A stretch of 64,000 nt of DNA from Polaromonas sp. (GTDB taxonomy: Bacteria; Pseudomonadota; Gammaproteobacteria; Burkholderiales; Burkholderiaceae_C): NCBI GenBank assembly GCA_031363755.1, contig JANLUZ010000122.1:3631-67630 (forward strand). Direction: 5' to 3'. Under the pieces are notes generated by a model. It saw only the letters and a list, made by a program, of their open reading frames with translations, did no database searches and had not been told where the DNA came from. Within the stretch, counting starts at the first letter, position 1, and every line of letters starts with the position of its first letter. Shown here piece after piece: positions 43,436 through 54,443 of this stretch. Position numbers and translations under genes: made by a program.

Positions 43436-44902
43436 TCAGCGAACCCTGGGTTGGGCGGGCAGGCCATGTACGGCCTCGTTGCGCCAGCGCTGCGGCAACA
43501 GGTCAAACAGCGGCGTTTGCTCACGGCGCAGCCCGTTTTGCATGGTTGCCCTGTCCAGTGACGCCACCCGCCCTGACAGATCGACATACGCCAGCTGCTG
43601 CATCCACGCCACATCAAGCTGGCCGCTGGGGCCAGGGCGTGAAAAGATCAGCTCCAGGATTTTTCGGGCTTCGATGCTGCTGGCGCTGTTGCCCTGGTTT
43701 TGCGCCAGTCGGTACAGGCGAATCGCCTCGGTGTAATTCGCGCTTTGCCCCTCGCCGCGGTGGTTGCGTTTGGCGCGGGCCAGCGTTTCGGCGGGTGGGT
43801 TCATGCCGCCAGGTGGCATGACCATGCCGCTGGTGCCCGGTTTGGTGGCAGCCCGGTCCCGCCCCGGCAAGATGCTGGGGTTGATGGACGAGGGGGAAAC
43901 ACTGGCGTCTGGGTTGGATGCGGCCGCTAGTCGTTGCAGCACCCAGTCAGCGTTGTCGGCGGCGGCGTCAGAGCGGGACGCTGCCGCACGAAAAAACACC
44001 AGCGCTTCTGCCAGCTGGTTGTTGGCCGCACTGGTCAGGCCCAATTCCAGGTTTGCTTGAATATCGCCACGCTTGGCTGCGCCGACCAGCAGCGGACGGG
44101 ACGCGAGTGTGGCCGTGCCTGGACGGTTCGGGTCGCTGCGTGCCGACGGTGCTTCGCTTTGCAGCGGTTGCAGACGTGAGTCAATCAGCCACTGCAAATA
44201 TTGCGCACGGGGCAAATTCACGGCGCGCAGAGCTGGCAACCAACGCCGGGCAAGGGCTGGGTTTGGCGCGGTTTTGCAGCCGTCAATGTCGCACCAGGCC
44301 AGGCCGGCATTGGCCATCGGTTCGCCCAGCAGGCGCGCCTGCTCGAACCAAGAGACGGCGTCGGCGGAGTCGGCGGCTACACCAATGCCATGAAGCGTGA
44401 GCAGGCCCATTAACCACGACGCCCGCGCCTGCGCCGGATTGGCCCGAGTCGCCCCCGCCCGCTTCAATTGAGCAGGCTTGGCGCGCTGGCCTGCAGCGCC
44501 TGGCGGCCGGGACGCGATCTCACGCAGACGCTGGATCTCGGCGTCGAGCGCGGGGTGGTCGGGCCCGGGCAAACGAGGCGTTACGTCGGTCTGGTTGCTG
44601 GCGGCGATGGCTGGCGGCGGCCGGACGCGGCCTGGCGAGGCAGCACCGCGTGAAAAATCGTCGATCAAAGGGGCTCTGCCCGGTTGGGTCCCCGGAGCAA
44701 ACGGGTTGGTGGCGCTGTCTGCCTTGCTTGAACCCTTGGGGCCAGTGGCCCCTGTCACGACTGCACCACTGAAGAGCGCGTGGGGCGTGGGGTCGAACGC
44801 GCGGGCACTTTCGGTGGCGGTGGCGGTGCCCGCTGCGGCGTGCAGTGCCACCACGGCCCCAAGCGAAAACGCCGCGCGGTTAAAACAATTTAAGGAAGTC
44901 AT
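43436..44902 (-). CDS. Exported Sel1-like repeat protein
   Basis: Signal-like N-terminus, Pro/Ala linker, SLR-type segments (LGLLTLHGIGV-like LMGLLTLHGIGVAADSADAVSWFEQA, GDIQANLELG, ANYTEAIRLYRLAQNQG); start uncertain. Confidence 0.75.
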   Translation of the reverse strand: MTSLNCFNRAAFSLGAVVALHAAAGTATATESARAFDPTPHALFSGAVVTGATGPKGSSKADSATNPFAPGTQPGRAPLIDDFSRGAASPGRVRPPPAIAASNQTDVTPRLPGPDHPALDAEIQRLREIASRPPGAAGQRAKPAQLKRAGATRANPAQARASWLMGLLTLHGIGVAADSADAVSWFEQARLLGEPMANAGLAWCDIDGCKTAPNPALARRWLPALRAVNLPRAQYLQWLIDSRLQPLQSEAPSARSDPNRPGTATLASRPLLVGAAKRGDIQANLELGLTSAANNQLAEALVFFRAAASRSDAAADNADWVLQRLAAASNPDASVSPSSINPSILPGRDRAATKPGTSGMVMPPGGMNPPAETLARAKRNHRGEGQSANYTEAIRLYRLAQNQGNSASSIEARKILELIFSRPGPSGQLDVAWMQQLAYVDLSGRVASLDRATMQNGLRREQTPLFDLLPQRWRNEAVHGLPAQPRVR

Positions 44903-44951: not shown

Positions 44952-46700
44952 TTATCTAGCAATAGCCGCAGGCGTCGGCGCGGCAGCGGCAGCGCTGCCG
45001 CGTTTGGGCACCACGCTCCACTGCACACTGGCGCCCGTGTAGCCGTCGCGGCCCAACTTTTCAGTGAAGGCTTCGATGACGGTGTCCATGCTGCGCAGGT
45101 TCGGCACAGGAATCAGGGGCGGGGCGCTGAACAGTTGCGGCAGTCTGGGCGCGGCATCAACATCAGTAGCAAAGCAGGCCAGCCGCTCGACGCCAGCGCT
45201 GGTTGAGTCCATCACAAACCCGGGCGTTGGGCTCATCCAGTCTGGAATTCGAATGGTCTCGTTGGCACTCATCAAAGCGTTGGGGTTGGTAGCGTTGGGC
45301 AACACCCGCATCACGGTGCCTTCAGCCTGTTGCAGGAAACAATAGAAATACGATGCCCGAGACAGCGTTGCCGACACGAAAACCTGCTCGCCAACTTCGA
45401 ACGCGGTTCGGTTAACCAGCACGTTTTTAATTTGCAGGTCAAGGCTTCGCGGTGCGGGTGCGCTGCCGAATGGCACGGGAGCCACAGGTGTCGCCGTCAA
45501 TGCCGCGCCAGCGGCGGGTGCCAGCACGGCCATCGCCGCATTGCTGGGTGTCCAGCCGACCTGGGCGAGCTTGCCGTCTGAGCCCAGCACCACAAAGTTG
45601 CGCAGTGCCCGTTCGTAAGTTGCAAAATCCACCACCCCTGTGACCACCATGCCGGTGTCTGCCTGAAAGCGGCCCAGTGCCGTCACAAATTCCGGGCCTT
45701 TCTCATCCATCGGCGCACTGGCGTCGCCAGGAGGTGCCAGGTAGCCCTGCGTTATCAGCGAGCGCTGCACCAGCCGGGTCTGTGTGAGCGGTGAGCCTTC
45801 GTCAAACCAGTCACGCAACTGGCGCTGAAAGTCAGGATGGGTTTGCTCAAGTGTCAGGCACTGCCAGTAAGGCACACGTGCCCATTTGCCCACCATCTCG
45901 ATGACGGCTAGGTCAATGAGCGTTCGCAGCGCGCCGCCAGCGCCTATGGCGTAGTCGCGCCCCACGTTGAACTTGACGCCGTAGTTGCCGATTCGGCCCG
46001 CCACGTCAAGACCCTGTCCGCCGCCTCCAATGATCACTTCGTTGGCGGAGTCTAGACCCGGAATCAGCGTGCGGGTGCGAAAGTCGCCGAGATGCATTTC
46101 CAGTGCAATCACCGTGGCGTTTTTGCTGGCGCTGTAGCCGGTGTCAACACGGGAGGCTGAGGTACCTACATCGAACCGGTTGTTGATGACGTTTTGATCG
46201 GCATACGCAATGGCCCCCGAGATATAAAGCGCGGGGCGCTGCAGTTGCATCTGGTTGTTGTTCAACAAAATGGTGGTCAGGTTTTGAACGGTGTCCTGGC
46301 GGGCAATATCGACCTCGTAGTCAACAAAGCGGAACGCATTGCTCAGACGCGACATTTGCGAGAGCGACGTGATGATCATGTCTTTGGCAGCGGCTGGCAC
46401 CTTGCTTGAGAAGTCGGGGATTTGTTTGCTCGTGATCAGCGTTGTAGGCAACTGGGCTTCACGCAGCATGCGGTCCATGCACATCAGCGACTCCGAAAAA
46501 CTCGACAGGGCGCGCGTGGGCCGTACCACCGGCCGGTTTGCCGTGTACGCATAAGAATGAAATTCCGAGTCTTTTCGGGCGTCGACCGGTGTAGCGCAAC
46601 CCGCCAACAAGAGCAGGGCACCTGCCATGCAACAAGGTGCTATCCCACGCAGACAGCCACAGGACTGGGACCAGAGATTCAATGTATTTTTTATTGTCAT
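44952..46700 (-). CDS. CsgG/HfaB-like outer-membrane lipoprotein with peptidoglycan-binding and DUF4384 domains
   Basis: Lipobox LLLLAG-C; CsgG-type layout (FRFVDYE, ISGAIAYAD, VIALEMHL, ALRTLIDLAVIEMV); PG-binding-like VQRSLITQGY...ALGRFQADTGMVVTGVVD; DUF4384-like FEVGEQV...YFYCF...LPN...GVERLACFA. Confidence 0.75.
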   Translation of the reverse strand: MTIKNTLNLWSQSCGCLRGIAPCCMAGALLLLAGCATPVDARKDSEFHSYAYTANRPVVRPTRALSSFSESLMCMDRMLREAQLPTTLITSKQIPDFSSKVPAAAKDMIITSLSQMSRLSNAFRFVDYEVDIARQDTVQNLTTILLNNNQMQLQRPALYISGAIAYADQNVINNRFDVGTSASRVDTGYSASKNATVIALEMHLGDFRTRTLIPGLDSANEVIIGGGGQGLDVAGRIGNYGVKFNVGRDYAIGAGGALRTLIDLAVIEMVGKWARVPYWQCLTLEQTHPDFQRQLRDWFDEGSPLTQTRLVQRSLITQGYLAPPGDASAPMDEKGPEFVTALGRFQADTGMVVTGVVDFATYERALRNFVVLGSDGKLAQVGWTPSNAAMAVLAPAAGAALTATPVAPVPFGSAPAPRSLDLQIKNVLVNRTAFEVGEQVFVSATLSRASYFYCFLQQAEGTVMRVLPNATNPNALMSANETIRIPDWMSPTPGFVMDSTSAGVERLACFATDVDAAPRLPQLFSAPPLIPVPNLRSMDTVIEAFTEKLGRDGYTGASVQWSVVPKRGSAAAAAPTPAAIAR

Positions 46701-46842: not shown

Positions 46843-47277
46843 TTAATTGCAGATGTTGACCACGTCGCCGCGCAGCACCACGATCTGCTGAACCGGCTGG
46901 CTGCCAGGGCCGGCCGTTGTTGTGGGTGCCGCTGCGCTGCCAATCGATTGGGTGCAGGTGGTTTTAAAACCGTCTGACGTTGCAGTGTTGACGACGTCTT
47001 TTTCCGTCAGGATGCCCGCTGTGTTGCCTGAAAACGCCTTGGCCTCGTAGCGGGAAATCTTTGCCTTCTGCCAGGCCGGCATGTCGGTTGAGTAGTTGAT
47101 GTAACTCGAACGCGGCGCGCTGCCAATCGGCAGCATTTGAATGTTGATGCGTTTGTCCAGTCGGACCGGGTCCTCGCCGGGTACGTTTTGGGCGCTTGCC
47201 GGGCCGCCCCAGCCCGCTAAGCCTACGGCCGCACAGGCTAACAACCCAACGGATAGACGCTTCACAAAATTGGCCAT
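46843..47277 (-). CDS. Small secreted protein of unknown function
   Basis: Sec signal peptide ending ASA-Q; 144 aa; paired Cys (TTCTQ and terminal ICN). Confidence 0.75.
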   Translation of the reverse strand: MANFVKRLSVGLLACAAVGLAGWGGPASAQNVPGEDPVRLDKRINIQMLPIGSAPRSSYINYSTDMPAWQKAKISRYEAKAFSGNTAGILTEKDVVNTATSDGFKTTCTQSIGSAAAPTTTAGPGSQPVQQIVVLRGDVVNICN

Positions 47278-47367: not shown

Positions 47368-48330
47368 TCAGTTGCGGCTGCAAGTTGGGCATGGGTCCAG
47401 CGGCATTTTTGGCTCATTGCAAGCATCGTTTGATGCAATGTTTTGAGCCGCGTGACTACCAGCGCCGTTGGCTGCGTTGGTCACTGTCGCACCGTTCAGG
47501 AAAGTTGTCTGAAACGAGGTACCGGCCACAAGCACGTTGCCCATGTTCGACGATAGGTTTTGACTGGCCACAGAATTAAGACCATTGGCACTGTTGCTGA
47601 CGACAGATTTTTTCGAGTCGACCAGCTGTTTGGAGTTGCCGTTGATCGTCACTGGCCCCTCGTTGCTAGCCAGACTTTGTGTTGCTGTAGACAGAACACC
47701 CTTTGCCTTGTTCATGAACGAAGACCCTGAAGAGTTCACATCCTGGTCAGAGATGCCACCGACGCCTACAGCGATTTTTCCGTTGTTGCTGGCCAGGTTT
47801 TGTGTTGCGATTGCCTTAAACCCGGTGGCGTCATTGCTCACGGTGTCACCGCTGGTGCGTGTCGTCTGCTGCGACGCTCCCTTTATCGCCACATCACCCT
47901 TGTTGCTCGACAGGTTTTGCAACGCATCAGACTGTCCGCCCGATGCTACGTTGGATACCGCCGTAGTGTTCAAAAATGCATCCTGAGCAGACTTAGCGCC
48001 CTTTGCAATAGTTACTTTTCCAGCGTTCGACGCCACATTCTGATTGGCGAAATCATCCAAACGAACTGACTCGTTTTTCATTGAGCCCCCATTTGTAACC
48101 GTATTTTGCTTCGAACTGCCGTCAATGGTGATGGCCCCAGCGTTGCTGGAGACGTTTTGTAGTGCGGTGTTCTTCAGTTGGGACGTGTTGGACACTGTCG
48201 TGCCCGTCATTGACGCATTTTGCGTTGAAGACCCCGCGGTTCCGATCGTGATGGCCGCAGGCGTTGTCGGCCCCGCAGCCATGGCACCAGCTGCAACAGC
48301 GGAAAGAGCGAAAAAAACGATTGATTTCAT
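47368..48330 (-). CDS. Secreted Asn/Gln/Ser-rich repeat protein (functional amyloid / beta-solenoid-like)
   Basis: Signal peptide MKSIVFFALSAVAAGAMA; seven 39-41-aa repeats with conserved SxQ, NxA, AxQNxxSNxG; C-terminal CPTC. Confidence 0.85.
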   Translation of the reverse strand: MKSIVFFALSAVAAGAMAAGPTTPAAITIGTAGSSTQNASMTGTTVSNTSQLKNTALQNVSSNAGAITIDGSSKQNTVTNGGSMKNESVRLDDFANQNVASNAGKVTIAKGAKSAQDAFLNTTAVSNVASGGQSDALQNLSSNKGDVAIKGASQQTTRTSGDTVSNDATGFKAIATQNLASNNGKIAVGVGGISDQDVNSSGSSFMNKAKGVLSTATQSLASNEGPVTINGNSKQLVDSKKSVVSNSANGLNSVASQNLSSNMGNVLVAGTSFQTTFLNGATVTNAANGAGSHAAQNIASNDACNEPKMPLDPCPTCSRN

Positions 48331-48862
48331 GATGATTCCCCAAAAAAGGTTGGTCTCAGACTTTTCCAACAGCGCAGCAAATCCGAGCAGTTGGGCGGTT
48401 TGACAACACTTTCTCATCTCAATCCCTACAAAGAAGAAGGACTGACTTCCAGCGTTGTCTGCGATCAGTGTTATCCGCCTGGAACACCCCGCCAATCGCC
48501 GGTAGGGGGTAACCAGCTTGTGAATCGCTTCATAAGCGACTTCCTGCAAATTAATAAACAGTCGGTGGCATCGTAATTTTCGTTACTCCCGCGTGAGCCT
48601 CTGTATCACCATAATTCAGGTTAGTAAGTACATGTATCAATAGAAACAAAATAAGGTCGTTTATTTCTAAGGCGGCTTGTTATTCCGAAAGCCAAGAAAA
48701 TCAGAAAAATTGGGCTTTTTATCCTACATTTTTCGGCGAACAACGCGCGCACAATCCGATTTCGCTGGCTTCGGTGTTGTTCGGCTTGCTTAACTGGCGG
48801 CAGATTCTGAAGCCAGTACACGAGCTCAAAGAAAAACATAACTTAATGTTCAAAGGCTCCTT

Positions 48863-49738
48863 ATGGACACCGTTAGTGACAACGTGGCCGCGCCTGCAAG
48901 TACTTTTGATGCGCTTAAACCGGACAGTGCGCAGTGTTTTTTGATGCAAGAAGACTCCGCGTCGGTCAGGCAAGTGGCTAATCATCTGTGCCCGGCAAAC
49001 CTGGGCCGAGGGGCCAATTTTCTTCAGGTGCCCATTGCCACTCCTGCGCCATGGCCGGATTTTCTAACGGGTCAGCCCGGCCGCCCGGTTCGGGTGCTGC
49101 TGATTGACGATGACGCGCACATGAGAAATGTCATTGCCAACGAGCTGTTGTCAGACTTGCGCTGCGACGTGGTGGCGCAGGCCTCAAGCGTTAAAGAGGG
49201 CCGAAAACTGATCGCCCACCATGTGTTCGAGGTGATGCTGGTGGACTTGAACTTGGGCGACGGCAACGGATTTGAACTGATTGAACACATGAAGACCGTT
49301 CGGCCGTTGGCGGAGGCGGTGGTGATTTCGGCGATGGAAGATGAGCAACACGCACTCAAGGCATTTGAGCTGGGTGCCACGGGATATCTCGTCAAAAACT
49401 CGTGGTTTGGAAATTTTTCTCAAGCGGTGTTGCAGGTGGTCAATGGTGGCGCCTCCATCACGCCTAACCTGGCGCGTCGGCTGCTGCAAAAGCTAGAGCA
49501 ACCCTGCAGCACCCACGGCCGGGCGGTCGGTGTCAACCCACTCAAAGACAAGCTTTCAGACCGTGAAAAAGAGGTGCTGAAGATGGTTGCAGCTGGCTAC
49601 ACCAGTGCGGAGATCGGTACCCGGCTGATGATCAGCTTTCAAACGGTCAACACCCACATCAAGAACACGTACCGCAAGCTGCAAGTGCGGACCCGAGCCC
49701 AGGCAGTCAGCTCGGCTACTCACCTGGGGCTGCTGTAG
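48863..49738 (+). CDS. NarL/LuxR family response regulator
   Basis: VLLIDDD, MLVDLNLGD, GYLVKN receiver; LSDREKEVLKMVAAG...TVNTHIKNTYRKL HTH; start uncertain because of a long N-terminal extension. Confidence 0.92.
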   Translation: MDTVSDNVAAPASTFDALKPDSAQCFLMQEDSASVRQVANHLCPANLGRGANFLQVPIATPAPWPDFLTGQPGRPVRVLLIDDDAHMRNVIANELLSDLRCDVVAQASSVKEGRKLIAHHVFEVMLVDLNLGDGNGFELIEHMKTVRPLAEAVVISAMEDEQHALKAFELGATGYLVKNSWFGNFSQAVLQVVNGGASITPNLARRLLQKLEQPCSTHGRAVGVNPLKDKLSDREKEVLKMVAAGYTSAEIGTRLMISFQTVNTHIKNTYRKLQVRTRAQAVSSATHLGLL

Positions 49739-49763: not shown

Positions 49764-51272
49764 ATGATTTCTGTTTCTGGTCAGCAGCTCATCGGCCAGC
49801 TGTGTGCGCTCGCCGGCATGGCGTTAGCAGGCTGTGTGTGCTGGCAGTCGCGCCGGTTGTGGCTGCGCCAGCAACGGCTGCAAGATTTATCGGTACTGGT
49901 GCTGGCCGGTGCCTGGCTGGCATATCTGGTCATCATGACTGGCATCAAGGAGATCAGCGCGAGATCTTCAACGGACCACGCGCAAGGCTTTGTCACACAG
50001 GTCTATGTGGAGCACATGGGTCTTCAGCTGTTGGCGGTGGCTGTCGGCGGTTTTTTACTGCTGACGACAGGCATTGCGCGGGGTTGGGTCTATGTGATGT
50101 TGACGGCGCAAGCCCTATTCGGCTTAGCGGTGCTGAGTTGGCGGCCATGGGACATGGCTGATACCTTCAAAAACTTTGCAGCGTCCAGCGCTTACCTACT
50201 CTGGGTTGTCCCCAATTTGTGTGGGGCAGTAGCTACTACAGCGGTGATTTTGAGAGCCGCCTGGCGCACGCGCAGCGCGGCAGGCTGGCTCGCCTTCAGC
50301 AGCTGCCTGATGGGCTTGGCGCTGTGTGCAGACCAATTGCTGGTGGACGACAAGAGCGTGCGCACGGGAACGGTGTCGCAGCTGGCTTTCGCCTTGTTTT
50401 TGTGGGTGGTGTGGCGCATCACCGCCAACCAGAGCAGAACTGCCCCAAGCGCCGGTGTTTTGGCTGAATTTCCGCAAAGTGGCAACATGATACTGCTGTC
50501 TGATTTTGGGTCGCCGCCCAACGCTGCCGCCGCTGCGCTGGCCGCCGTAGCACAGGAGCGCCGCCGCATTGGCCAGGACCTGCATGACGGTGTGGCGTCG
50601 CAGCTGGTCACATTGCTGTGTACGCTCGACAGTGCCTTGCCAAAAGACCAGCGCATGGCGCTTGCGCTGGAGAAATGCCTTGTCGACCTGAAAATGACCG
50701 TCGACGCACTGGACGCCAGCACCGACAACATTCTGGACGCGTTGGGCCGTTTGAGGTATCGGGTTCAGCATTCGTTGGACAAGCTGGGTATTCAGATGTT
50801 GTGGCGGGTGGAAGTACGGGACGAGCTGGCCGCAGTACGGGGCGACGCAGCACTGCACACCTTGCGTATTGCGCAAGAAAGTCTGAGCAACGTGATGATG
50901 CACGCGCATGCATCCGCTGTCGAAGTGGTGTGCCGCTATCTGGCCGAGACAGACACCCTGCTGCTGGAAGTCCGAGACAACGGATGTGGCATCGCCCGGC
51001 ACCGCGGCGCCGCATCGGGGTCTGCAGGCCAAGCGGGGCAATCGGGGCAATCGGGATTTATCGGCACGCAGCCATCTGGCAAGGGCCTGATCAACATGCG
51101 CAACCGCGCAAAAAGTATGGGCGGGGAACTGACCATTTCAAGCAAATTGGGCGCTGGCACCCGGGTTCGTTTGCAATTGCCCATACAAGGTGCCGCCCGC
51201 TTGGCAGCGTGCATCAATGCCAATGACACGGTGGCCGGCGGCGCCGGGCCGATATCGTCACTGATCTGTTGA
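49764..51272 (+). CDS. Membrane sensor histidine kinase (HisKA_3, NarX/UhpB type)
   Basis: About seven TM helices; QERRRIGQDLHD H-box; IAQESLSN; VRDNGCG; GKGLINMRNRAKSMGG. Confidence 0.9.
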   Translation: MISVSGQQLIGQLCALAGMALAGCVCWQSRRLWLRQQRLQDLSVLVLAGAWLAYLVIMTGIKEISARSSTDHAQGFVTQVYVEHMGLQLLAVAVGGFLLLTTGIARGWVYVMLTAQALFGLAVLSWRPWDMADTFKNFAASSAYLLWVVPNLCGAVATTAVILRAAWRTRSAAGWLAFSSCLMGLALCADQLLVDDKSVRTGTVSQLAFALFLWVVWRITANQSRTAPSAGVLAEFPQSGNMILLSDFGSPPNAAAAALAAVAQERRRIGQDLHDGVASQLVTLLCTLDSALPKDQRMALALEKCLVDLKMTVDALDASTDNILDALGRLRYRVQHSLDKLGIQMLWRVEVRDELAAVRGDAALHTLRIAQESLSNVMMHAHASAVEVVCRYLAETDTLLLEVRDNGCGIARHRGAASGSAGQAGQSGQSGFIGTQPSGKGLINMRNRAKSMGGELTISSKLGAGTRVRLQLPIQGAARLAACINANDTVAGGAGPISSLIC

Positions 51273-51956: not shown

Positions 51957-54443
51957 ATGTCCCCCATCATCGCCCAAATCGCTCAGGAACTGCGCGTTCA
52001 GTCGCACCAGGTCAGCACCGCCGTGGGCCTGCTGGACGGCGGGGCCACCGTGCCTTTCATTGCCCGCTACCGCAAGGAAGCCACGGGTGGCCTGGACGAC
52101 ATCCAACTGCGTGAGCTGGAGCAGCGCCTGGGCTACTTGCGCGAGCTGGCCGACCGCAAGGAAACGGTTCTTAACAGCATTCGAGAGCAGGGCAAGCTGA
52201 CCCCAGCACTGGCCGACGCCATTGCCCAGGCCGCTACCAAACAAGACCTTGAAGACATCTACCTGCCGTTTAAACAAAAGCGTCGCACCAAGGGGAAAAT
52301 GGCGCGCGAAGCCGGCATTGAACCGCTGGCCGACAAGTTGTTTGCCGACCCCTCGTTGACCCCCATCAACGAAGCTGTCGCCTATGTGAAGCTTGACAAA
52401 AGCGAGCTTGGCGACGACTTCACCACTGTGCAAGCCGTGCTTGACGGAGTGCGCGACATTTTGAGCGAGCGCTGGGCGGAAGATGCGGCCTTGGTGCAAG
52501 GGCTGCGCGGCTGGCTGTGGACCGACGGGCTGTTCTCAAGCAAGCTGGTTAATGGCAAGGACGAAAACAATGCCGACCACGCGAAGTTTCGCGATTATTT
52601 TGACTACGTCGAACCCGTGGGCCGTGTGCCATCGCACCGCGCGCTGGCGGTCTTCAGGGGCAGGGCGCTGGAGATTCTGGACGCCAAACTGCTGCTGCCC
52701 GAGCCGCCGTTGTCCGCAGGCGCGGTGCCACCGAAAGGCCAACAATTTTCCGCCGGGCCGCCCCAAGGAAAATTAGCCCCGGCGGGGGGCAGCGAAGGAC
52801 ACGACAGTGCCAAGCGTGGGGACCAGCCCGTGTCACTGGCCGAAGGAAAAATTGCACTGCACCTGGGCTGGAGCCACAAGGCGCGGCCAGCCGACGACCT
52901 GATCCGCAAGTGTGTGGCCTGGGCGTGGCGCGTCAAACTCAGCCTGTCGCTGGAGCGTGACCTGTTCACCCGCCTGCGGGAAGACGCTGAAAAAGTCGCC
53001 ATCAAGGTGTTTGCCGATAACCTGCGCGACCTATTGCTGGCCGCCCCGGCTGGCCCGCGTGTGGTGATGGGCCTGGACCCGGGCATTCGCACCGGGGTGA
53101 AAGTGGCGGTGGTGGACGCCACCGGCAAGCTGGTGGAAACGGCGACGGTGTTCCCGCACGAGCCGCGCAAGGACTGGGAAGGCTCCCTGCACATGCTGGG
53201 CAAGCTGTGCGACAAGCACGGCGTGAACCTGATCGCTATCGGCAACGGCACCGCCAGCCGCGAGACGGACAAGCTGGCTGCTGATTTGATGAAACGCCTG
53301 CACGACCTGAACAGTGGCATGCAGCGCGTGATTGTCAGTGAGGCGGGAGCCTCCGTTTATTCCGCCAGCGAATTTGCCAGCCAGGAAATGCCCGACGTGG
53401 ACGTGAGCCTGCGCGGCGCGGCCAGCATCGCACGCCGCCTGCAAGACCCGCTGGCCGAGCTGGTGAAAATCGACCCGAAGTCGATTGGCGTCGGCCAATA
53501 CCAGCACGACGTGAATCAGTCTGACTTGGCACGTAGCCTGGACACGGTGGTCGAAGACTGCGTGAACAGCGTGGGCGTGGACCTGAACACTGCCAGCGTC
53601 CCGCTATTGGCCCGGGTTTCAGGCTTGTCGCAAACGGTGGCCAAGTCGGTGGTGCGCTGGCGCGACGCGAACGGCGCATTTGCATCGCGGGCTGATCTGC
53701 TCAAGGTGACCGGTCTGGGGGCGAAAACATTCGAGCAGAGCGCGGGCTTTTTGCGCCTTCGCACCAGCACAAATCCATTAGACATGACGGGCGTTCACCC
53801 CGAGACCTACCCGGTCGTAGAAAATATCATGGCGCACACCGGTAAGCCTGTGGCTGAGCTGATGGGCCGGGCCGACATGCTCAAAACCCTCAAACCCGAG
53901 CTCTTTGCTAACGATAAGTTCGGTGTCATCACCGTCAAGGACATCATCGCCGAGCTGGAAAAGCCAGGCCGTGACCCGCGCCCGGACTTCAAGGTGGCCC
54001 GCTTCAACGACGGCGTGAACGATATGAAGGACCTGCGCGAAGGCATGGAACTGGAAGGCACCGTGAGCAACGTGGCCGCATTCGGCGCGTTCATCGACCT
54101 GGGCGTGCACCAGGACGGGCTGGTACACGTCAGCCAGCTGAGCCACAAGTTTGTGACCGATGCGCGCGAGGTTGTCAAAACCGGCGACATCGTCAAAGTG
54201 CGCGTGACCGAGGTGGACGTGGCCCGCAAACGCATCGGCCTGACGATGAAACTCGGCGATGCCCCGGCCAGACGTGACGCCCCGCAAGGCCACGGTGTGA
54301 ACCGTTTTGAAGGCGCGCGTCCGGGTGCTTCGGGCGGTGGGCAGCGCGGCTTCAATGGCGGCAACGCGCCCCGTGGGCCTCAGCCGTCGTCGGCAACCGC
54401 CATGGAGTCGGCCTTCAGCAAGCTCGCGGGGTTGAAGAAGTAA
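51957..54443 (+). CDS. tex: Tex family RNA-binding transcriptional accessory protein
   Basis: TVPFIARYRKE, GLDPGIRTGVK, IAIGNGTASRET, IGVGQYQHDV, S1 domain GTVSNVAAFGAFIDLGVHQDGLVH. Confidence 0.96.
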   Translation: MSPIIAQIAQELRVQSHQVSTAVGLLDGGATVPFIARYRKEATGGLDDIQLRELEQRLGYLRELADRKETVLNSIREQGKLTPALADAIAQAATKQDLEDIYLPFKQKRRTKGKMAREAGIEPLADKLFADPSLTPINEAVAYVKLDKSELGDDFTTVQAVLDGVRDILSERWAEDAALVQGLRGWLWTDGLFSSKLVNGKDENNADHAKFRDYFDYVEPVGRVPSHRALAVFRGRALEILDAKLLLPEPPLSAGAVPPKGQQFSAGPPQGKLAPAGGSEGHDSAKRGDQPVSLAEGKIALHLGWSHKARPADDLIRKCVAWAWRVKLSLSLERDLFTRLREDAEKVAIKVFADNLRDLLLAAPAGPRVVMGLDPGIRTGVKVAVVDATGKLVETATVFPHEPRKDWEGSLHMLGKLCDKHGVNLIAIGNGTASRETDKLAADLMKRLHDLNSGMQRVIVSEAGASVYSASEFASQEMPDVDVSLRGAASIARRLQDPLAELVKIDPKSIGVGQYQHDVNQSDLARSLDTVVEDCVNSVGVDLNTASVPLLARVSGLSQTVAKSVVRWRDANGAFASRADLLKVTGLGAKTFEQSAGFLRLRTSTNPLDMTGVHPETYPVVENIMAHTGKPVAELMGRADMLKTLKPELFANDKFGVITVKDIIAELEKPGRDPRPDFKVARFNDGVNDMKDLREGMELEGTVSNVAAFGAFIDLGVHQDGLVHVSQLSHKFVTDAREVVKTGDIVKVRVTEVDVARKRIGLTMKLGDAPARRDAPQGHGVNRFEGARPGASGGGQRGFNGGNAPRGPQPSSATAMESAFSKLAGLKK
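52755..52821 (+). repeat. GC-rich palindromic element (family C) inserted in frame in tex
   Basis: GGGCCGCCCCAAGGAAAATTAGCCCCGGCGGGGGGCAGCGAAGGACACGACAGTGCCAAGCGTGGGG, encoding GPPQGKLAPAGGSEGHDSAKRG. Confidence 0.65.

Follow-up and report, generated by a model that had tools for sequence, protein, structure and literature searches.

This work concerns a gene in a 64,000-nucleotide (nt) stretch of DNA from Polaromonas sp. (assembly GCA_031363755.1, contig JANLUZ010000122.1, positions 3,631 to 67,630 of the forward strand), hereafter called the window. The gene is the first of an operon and encodes a secreted, seven-repeat protein rich in Q, N, S, T, G and A, referred to here as the subunit. 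We consider with moderate confidence that the subunit is the building block of a curli-like (type VIII-like) surface fiber or layer of the curli/Fap/Hfa type. To our knowledge, curli and Fap are the only Gram-negative secreted functional-amyloid systems that are understood at the molecular level. A full-text search of the literature found no description of the subunit family.

The subunit gene is a single open reading frame (ORF) on the minus strand (48330..47368) of 320 amino acids (aa) and a stop codon, and it is present in one copy in the genome. The original prediction had placed a repeat protein at 47368-48330 and left its strand unstated; translation of the reverse strand of this region indeed gives a single 320-aa ORF. 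The ATG at 48330 is preceded, at a distance of 7 nt, by a GGGGA ribosome-binding site, and a 393-aa ORF with a TTG start at the same locus is probably an over-extension. The composition is dominated by S (14%), A (14%), N (12%), G (10%) and T (10%), with Q at 5%, and S, A, N, G, T, V and Q together make up 67% of the residues. The only three Cys residues (C304, C314 and C317) all lie in the C-terminal tail. A Sec signal peptide, MKSIVFFALSAVAAGAMA (residues 1-18; 48277..48330, minus strand), is read from the sequence, fits the family pattern MK(S/K)LAFFALSAxATAAMA and is presumably cleaved after AMA. It is followed by the spacer AGPTTPAA, so that both the Sec signal and the spacer of 8 residues noticed earlier are found in the translated subunit.

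Seven imperfect repeats of 40, 39, 41, 39, 41, 39 and 39 aa occupy residues 27-304 (47419..48252, minus strand). On re-measurement, their number, lengths and boundaries agree exactly with those first reported; the example given at that time corresponds to repeat 4 (residues 147-185), and the tail given there to residues 304-320. The repeats share the anchor Q[NS][LVI][AS]SN, located at residues 58, 97, 138, 177, 218, 257 and 296, which is counted seven times in the subunit versus at most once in any shuffle. Likewise, the residue autocorrelation reaches 0.25-0.28 at lags of 39, 80 and 119 versus a maximum of 0.19 in 5000 composition-preserving shuffles. Pairwise identity among the seven repeats is 28-50% (mean 38%). 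Internal periodicity peaks at 80 aa (39 + 41) rather than at 39 aa, which suggests that the array expanded through duplication of repeat pairs. Relative to a five-repeat homologue, the subunit has an extra 80-aa pair (repeats 4 and 5), its repeats 1, 3, 6 and 7 are the counterparts of repeats 1, 3, 4 and 5 in that protein, and conservation is highest in the last repeat (65%). No tandem repeat was detected at the DNA level within the subunit gene, and the repeats are therefore considered old. A half-repeat periodicity of ~20 aa was also sought by autocorrelation in the subunit and none was significant, for which reason the interpretation of each repeat as two curlin-like rungs was dropped.

Column conservation was determined on 303 unique repeats pooled from the relatives of the subunit, with the limitation that in the last block the anchors Q, S/T and N were fixed by the extraction pattern, which thereby partly preset positions 31-36. 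Three blocks are conserved, namely V/I1, I/V3, G5, S7 (96%), Q9 (100%) and T/V/A11 in the first, V18, N20 (100%), A22 and G24 in the second, and A29 (97%), Q31, N32, L/I/V33, A/S34, S35, N36 and G38 in the third. The columns that had been proposed from the seven repeats of the window thus recur in the larger set as V/I-x-I/V-x-G-x-S-x-Q, V-x-N-x-A-x-G and A-x-Q-N-[LIV]-[AS]-S-N-x-G. Conserved and variable positions take turns along the repeat, and charge is absent from the conserved ones (0%), versus 5-41% charged residues at the positions in between. At the level of sequence, this pattern is the signature of strands that face an uncharged core with Ser/Gln/Asn ladders.

An AlphaFold2 (AF2) monomer model, computed from a 23-sequence family alignment, displays a regular all-beta repeat fold with a predicted local distance difference test score (pLDDT) of 87.1 and a predicted template modeling score of 0.82, and four of the five models reach at least 83. 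Each repeat contains four strands (beta1-beta4), from which we infer one four-sided coil per repeat. In the model, disorder is confined to the signal peptide and the nine C-terminal residues, and the tail has a low pLDDT. Part of the original claim of a beta-solenoid is hereby strengthened, namely by the confident all-beta repeat model and by the alternation of uncharged conserved positions, but no structural neighbor was found in the PDB and AF2 has a known bias for such folds.

A word-index search retrieved 22 clusters of homologues of 184-424 aa with 34-49% identity, none of which is named; NCBI and UniRef label the relatives of the subunit as 'hypothetical protein'. A scan of one genome per species yielded 94 loci, from which we retained the best 80, and at least 89 loci were analyzed in all. 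Among the best 80 of the 94 loci, the named carriers are nearly all Burkholderiales of the Comamonadaceae type, including Polaromonas, Acidovorax, Comamonas, Ottowia, Melaminivora, Diaphorobacter and Hydrogenophaga, as well as Variovorax, Xylophilus, Simplicispira, Alicycliphilus, Xenophilus, Caenimonas and Tibeticola. Three repeats is the modal form of the family (44 of the 89 loci), followed by five (19 loci) and four (15 loci); seven repeats, as in the window, occur in 5 loci, six in 4, and two and nine in a single locus each.

The subunit ends with a Cys-rich tail of 17 aa, CNEPKMPLDPCPTCSRN (residues 304-320; 47371..47421, minus strand), in which the three Cys residues are spaced as C-x9-C-x2-C. 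The three-repeat relatives (~157 aa) end with QNIASNN[AGS]-C-x-x-C, i.e., a strict CxxC straight after the last repeat, and the longer relatives end with SND[AS]-C-x4-9-C-x2-4-C and hence contain three Cys residues. Variants of the tail within the family are C-x2-C, C-x6-C-x2-C, C-x6-C-x4-C and C-x9-C-x4-C. Because tail Cys residues recur in both three-repeat and longer relatives, the C-terminal Cys module is regarded as a character of the family on the basis of these sequences, with CxxC as its commonest form. The tail had originally been described as a FapC-like C-terminal CxxC. A Cys cluster does follow the last repeat, with three residues in the window, but the likeness to FapC is an analogy and not a homology, and the one Polaromonas FapC read here has no C-terminal Cys.

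The subunit did not match any family in Pfam (E up to 0.1) or NCBIfam, nor any PDB sequence. The curlin repeat model (Curlin_rpt, PF07012) did not match the subunit, and nothing in the whole genome scored above its cut-off. The Pfam copy used for the whole-genome searches lacks the FapBC model PF27129, as the copy used for the protein scan probably also does. Comparison of the subunit family alignment using hhalign gave a probability (Prob) of only 0.3% against E. coli CsgA, and of 0.2% and 0.1% against FapC and FapB of Polaromonas, respectively. The view that the repeat consensus is unlike that of either CsgA or FapC is thus upheld by the hhalign Prob of 0.3% and 0.2% and by the lack of a Pfam match. 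No profile of an autotransporter translocator barrel or passenger was found in the subunit with Pfam or NCBIfam, and the protein stops 16 residues past the last repeat. The NCBIfam models for holdfast anchors matched neither the subunit nor the secreted 144-aa protein encoded next to it. A strong match to an adhesin or autotransporter family, which would have spoken against the original interpretation, was likewise not obtained, as no Pfam or NCBIfam family was assigned and the best Foldseek match has an E of 0.029.

A probable link to fiber secretion is provided by a 582-aa lipoprotein (44952..46700, minus strand), encoded in the same operon and present in 87 of the 89 loci. It has an LLAGC lipobox and consists of a CsgG-like N-terminal domain (N-domain, residues ~22-280), a PG_binding_1 domain (308-363), an Ala/Pro linker and a DUF4384 domain (434-513), of which PG_binding_1 and DUF4384 were assigned with Pfam. 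A broadened N-domain profile, in which the protein of the window is included, aligned to E. coli CsgG in hhalign with a Prob of 94.2% and an E of 1.1e-7 over 222 columns. Residues 22-280 of the lipoprotein correspond to residues 3-253 of the 277 residues of CsgG, and a second hhalign alignment had a similar outcome. As judged from these profiles, the N-domain is a divergent CsgG. The N-domain profile has 704 representatives (E ≤ 1e-3) among 1.84 billion proteins. PG_binding_1 is present in 35 of 44 distant members (E of 1e-35 or better), DUF4384 in 22 and the Pfam CsgG domain in six (best E 4.3e-6). The sole direct library match of the N-domain is a faint one to the NCBIfam HfaB model (E 0.057; 12.6 bits versus a cut-off of 300), and the lipoprotein profile gave no CsgG match among PDB sequences.

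Both hhalign alignments show a 12-residue gap opposite CsgG FKPYPASNFSTA, a loop with Y51, N55 and F56 (mature numbering) that forms the constriction of the curli channel (Goyal et al. 2014, cited in PMC6707917). If the alignment is right, the lipoprotein would form a pore without a narrow gate. A narrow alignment of the N-domain and one further alignment were unconvincing when compared using hhalign with the CsgG-family protein of the genome itself (E 0.83 and Prob 22.7%); a clear match was obtained only for the broadened profile against E. coli CsgG. The only protein of this genome with a CsgG assignment at the Pfam level belongs to an operon of three lipoproteins of 243, 133 and 229 aa (L010:1333-3124), presumably of the CsgG/DUF4810/DUF799 type. 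No gene for a repeat subunit was found in the 3.5 kb read near this paralogue, and a word-index search with it retrieved close orthologues only.

Together, the cassette encodes the subunit, a secreted protein of ~140 aa, a lipoprotein of ~575 aa and a Sel1-like protein, in this order. The three downstream genes accompany the subunit in 81-88 of the 89 loci, which cover about 15 genera of the Comamonadaceae. The lipoprotein N-domain is the most conserved part of the cassette, with an identity of 65-90% versus 37-56% for the subunit; faster divergence of the subunit than of the machine would be usual for an exposed structural protein. The second gene encodes the 144-aa secreted partner (46843..47277, minus strand; 88 of the 89 loci). 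Its mature N-terminus reads VPGEDP in the window and APGEDP in most relatives, PG-x-D being invariant. The partner also has two invariant Cys residues and a near-invariant C-terminus, Q-x-V-V-L-R-G-D-L-V-N-I-C. Across an alignment of 25 relatives, the G, D, N and terminal C of VVLRGDLVNIC never vary. This C-terminus holds an R-G-D tripeptide, which is K-G-D in a few relatives. The partner has no match in Pfam or NCBIfam, and its comparison with CsgE, CsgF and the subunit using hhalign gave nothing significant. A role as repeat-bearing, CsgB-like nucleator was examined on the basis of the resemblance of VVNTATSDGFKTTCTQSIGS to the V-x-N-x-A...A-x-Q of the subunit and is not supported, as hhalign gave an E of only 0.042 with a Prob of 1.2%. 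The last gene of the operon encodes an exported Sel1-like repeat protein of 488 aa (43436..44902, minus strand; 81 of the 89 loci), whose Sel1 match remains below the Pfam cut-off (26.6 versus 30.7 bits).

Outside this group, the N-domain was found in 20 of 401 sampled genomes of the phylum, including families far from the Comamonadaceae. The same arrangement of genes is present in five of the eight distant loci that were fetched (L092-L096), e.g., at L094:510-6318. These distant cassettes comprise one to three tandem genes for small (~100-aa) secreted proteins with two to three Q/N/G/T repeats of ~37-38 aa, e.g., VQVQGNTKINTNVKGGVANTVEGSGNDSQLNVGGMQGK, next a ~96-aa protein ending with VVKGDVI(N/S)VCK and then a lipoprotein of ~525 aa. 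For L094, the presence of PG_binding_1 and DUF4384 in this lipoprotein was confirmed. The (K/R)GDVI(N/S)VC ending is kept in four of the five distant small proteins, the fifth (L092) having TGSVINVC. The distant cassettes are often accompanied by OmpA-family proteins and by an exported protein that combines a caspase-like Peptidase_C14 domain with EF-hand and DUF4384. A small protein with a CWQNG...LCL motif was observed in distant cassettes as well. When the Comamonadaceae repeat profile was run against nine distant subunits, one scored above all 1800 shuffled decoys (13.5 versus at most 9.3 bits) and was aligned in register with its three repeats. As the remaining eight did not exceed the decoys, a common origin of the near and distant subunits is plausible at most.

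Combining these elements, a model for assembly can be proposed. The signal peptide suggests that Sec exports the subunit, unfolded and rich in Q, N, S and T with an uncharged core, to the periplasm. Passage through the outer membrane would then occur via the CsgG-like lipoprotein, tethered to the wall by PG_binding_1; homology to CsgG is indicated by the profiles and the channel function is deduced from it. Outside the cell, each repeat of ~40 aa is predicted to fold into a four-strand unit that makes up one coil of a beta-solenoid, held together by ladders of Ser, Gln and Asn (S7, Q9, N20, Q31, N32, S35 and N36) and by small hydrophobic residues. The subunits probably stack head-to-tail into fibers, because the solenoid is uncapped at both ends and most relatives have only three repeats. 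More speculatively, the C-terminal Cys cluster could form a disulfide-stapled end-piece, and a tail with three Cys residues may leave one of them free for cross-linking to the next subunit or to the partner with its two Cys residues. The 144-aa partner, equally speculatively, might serve at the pore as an anchor or a nucleator.

Several results weigh against a curli-like fiber. The lipoprotein of the window does not match the Pfam CsgG model directly, and when AF2 was run on the whole lipoprotein (with 37 sequences that are too similar to each other) the N-domain reached a pLDDT of only ~30, so that the CsgG link is one of profile comparison. In addition, many lipoproteins of the CsgG family are apparently unrelated to fibers, such as the L010 paralogue of the genome studied here, and no partners resembling CsgE, CsgF or CsgB were detectable at the cassette. 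The link between the subunits of near and distant cassettes is weak, with the other eight of the nine distant subunits scoring at or below the decoys. Finally, a Foldseek search of the AF2 subunit model against the PDB gave no significant fold match. AF2 over-predicts solenoids for repeat sequences, and for perfect repeats does so confidently but with buried charges (PMC11795689). The structure comes from a single predictor, whose bias can yield a solenoid that is confident but unreal; this concern is partly answered by the absence of charge at the conserved positions.

The best Foldseek match is the TibA passenger (E 0.029, TM 0.10), and the weak top matches are right-handed beta-helices, namely the passengers of TibA and Ag43, pectate lyases and an Antarctic ice-binding protein. 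As these are monomeric, they are in line with an alternative in which the subunit does not polymerize and is a monomeric, cell-anchored beta-solenoid surface protein (an adhesin, or a protein that binds matrix, minerals or ice), exported by the CsgG-like lipoprotein. The number of repeats would then determine how long the protein is, and tethering to the cell would be the task of the Cys tail or of the 144-aa partner. Repeat number indeed varies among relatives as in many adhesins, the outward positions are rich in Thr, Ser and Asn, and many of the carriers are Polaromonas from cold environments. However, all Foldseek matches are non-significant (E ≥ 0.029, TM ≤ 0.23) and the subunit has no anchor domain. 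Moreover, the commonest form has three repeats, corresponding to a solenoid of ~120 aa whose two ends lack capping helices or domains, and short uncapped solenoids are known from the fibril subunits FapC and CsgA and not from stable monomers (PMC12822426). A monomeric surface protein is judged rather unlikely.

A second alternative, to which we attach a low probability, places the structure in the periplasm or at the inner leaflet. In this case, the lipoprotein would be a scaffold tethered to peptidoglycan without channel function and the subunit a layer or spacer. The two additional periplasmic domains of the lipoprotein (PG_binding_1 and DUF4384) and the 12 residues of the constriction loop FKPYPASNFSTA that it lacks according to hhalign would fit such a scaffold, as would the Sel1-like partner, which is of a type that is often periplasmic, and CsgG-family lipoproteins outside curli systems are common, with one at L010. 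Nevertheless, the alignment spans the whole CsgG fold, including the region of the transmembrane hairpins (CsgG residues 3-253), loss of the constriction loop would widen a pore rather than close it, and the subunit accumulates changes much more quickly than the machine, in keeping with an exposed location. It is very improbable that the solenoid is a prediction artefact and the subunit a disordered, low-complexity secreted polypeptide, e.g., a component of a hydrogel or matrix: the AF2 bias to confident solenoids for repeats (PMC11795689), the 67% share of S, A, N, G, T, V and Q and the lack of a structural neighbor in the PDB would agree with it, but the artefact is triggered by perfect repeats, whereas those of the subunit are imperfect (38% identity), and the strict conservation over 303 repeats, which alternates between inward and outward positions and keeps the conserved ones uncharged, implies a folded, packed state.

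The curli-like assembly that we favor can be compared with the three known systems. Curli of E. coli are encoded by csgBAC-csgDEFG, with CsgA and CsgB as subunits. As in curli, the subunit is Sec-exported, rich in Q, N and S, composed of imperfect repeats and predicted to form a beta-solenoid, the cassette includes a CsgG-homologous outer-membrane lipoprotein, and a gene for a LuxR-family regulator is located divergently. The curlin repeat is a strand-turn-strand unit with the consensus S-x5-Q-x-G-x-G-N-x-A-x3-Q. Whereas it comprises about 19-23 aa and two strands, the repeat of the subunit has 39-41 aa and four predicted strands. Other differences from curli are that no CsgB-like paralogue, CsgE, CsgF or CsgC was detected, that in the alignment the CsgG-like domain of the window is missing the constriction loop, that this domain continues into PG_binding_1 and DUF4384 in the same protein, that the subunit bears a Cys-rich C-terminal tail, and that the regulator is a full two-component pair. 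Repeat number varies among homologues of the subunit as it does in curli; CsgA homologues differ in their number of repeats, and FapC has three (PMC12822426).

With Fap (fapABCDEF of Pseudomonas, with the subunits FapC and FapB), the subunit family shares a repeat that is longer than that of curlin, a modal count of three repeats and conserved ladders of Asn and Gln. FapC has a short, flexible C-terminal segment with Cys residues that form a disulfide (bioRxiv 10.64898/2026.04.28.719052), and the subunit of the window likewise has Cys residues after the last repeat, a feature that is not universal in Fap since the one Polaromonas FapC read here lacks Cys. A local likeness between A-L-Q-N-x-x-G-N-I-G of Fap and A-x-Q-N-x-x-S-N-x-G of the subunit is not significant. 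Unlike in FapC, the repeats in the window are contiguous, without long linkers, and unlike the Fap system the cassette has no FapF-type barrel, no FapD C39 peptidase, no FapA and no FapE. A complete fapA-F operon is located ~4 kb downstream of the cassette in the Polaromonas metagenome-assembled genome GCA_964474525.1 (L100:17225-21734). It encodes a 165-aa protein, FapB (209 aa), FapC (402 aa, with no Cys at all), a C39 peptidase, a 294-aa protein and a FapF-like barrel. The presence of this operon beside the cassette identifies the two as separate systems, and one organism may make two repeat-fiber systems.

The third system is the holdfast anchor of Caulobacter (hfaA-hfaB-hfaD), in which HfaA is curlin-like and forms multimers that resist sodium dodecyl sulfate. 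HfaB is the CsgG-type lipoprotein needed for the surface display of HfaA and HfaD (PMC6707917). As in Hfa, a lipoprotein of the CsgG/HfaB type is encoded in a small operon together with small secreted proteins, which in Hfa depend on it. The cassette differs in that neither the subunit nor the small protein matches the HfaA or HfaD families, genes for holdfast polysaccharide are not located nearby, the lipoprotein has the extra PG_binding_1 and DUF4384 domains, and the subunit is a long tandem-repeat protein.

On this basis, we tentatively put forward a broader proposal, which at present we hold to be possible and no more than that: the cassette may represent a third class of Gram-negative functional-amyloid-like fibers beside curli and Fap. 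It would be defined by a wall-tethered, gateless CsgG-type pore and by a non-curlin subunit with coils of ~39 aa, in which repeat number tunes the fiber geometry and the C-terminal disulfide module staples or cross-links the ends, and the Comamonadaceae would be one lineage of a Proteobacteria-wide cassette. A third subunit family, if true, would show how far the logic of secretion and assembly can vary. Among the carriers are abundant genera of freshwater, glaciers, soil and wastewater (Polaromonas, Acidovorax, Comamonas, Hydrogenophaga, Diaphorobacter and Ottowia), in which the biofilm matrix and the formation of flocs are of practical importance. Since cultured carriers exist, e.g., Polaromonas jejuensis NBRC 106434, Acidovorax delafieldii DSM 64, Diaphorobacter nitroreducens DSM 15985 and Hydrogenophaga taeniospiralis NBRC 102512, the hypothesis is directly testable. 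With its natural series of three to nine repeats and its short repeat with an uncharged core, the subunit would be a possible scaffold for the engineering of protein materials, and a gateless CsgG-type pore would be of interest for nanopore engineering.

Upstream of the subunit gene, a divergent intergenic region of 532 bp with an AT-rich stretch (48331..48862) separates the operon from a regulator pair. This pair consists of a NarL/LuxR-type response regulator with Response_reg and GerE domains (48863..49738, plus strand), which adjoins the cassette in 83 of the 89 loci, and its partner histidine kinase with HisKA_3 and HATPase_c domains (49764..51272, plus strand), detected in 69 of the 89 loci. 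In most loci, as in the window, the pair is divergent from the subunit operon. CsgD controls the expression of curli; by analogy, the conserved adjacency suggests that the LuxR-type two-component pair would control expression of the cassette. Terminator and promoter scans remained at background level, and a search of the 5' region for a riboswitch returned no Rfam family. One sigma-70-like site is present in the intergenic region (48640-48611, minus strand) and, if used, would give the subunit mRNA a 5' leader of ~280 nt. The tex gene is syntenic with the cassette both in the window (51957-54443, plus strand) and in Polaromonas relatives (L006-L008), the Tex protein having 828 aa in the window versus 788-791 aa in these relatives.

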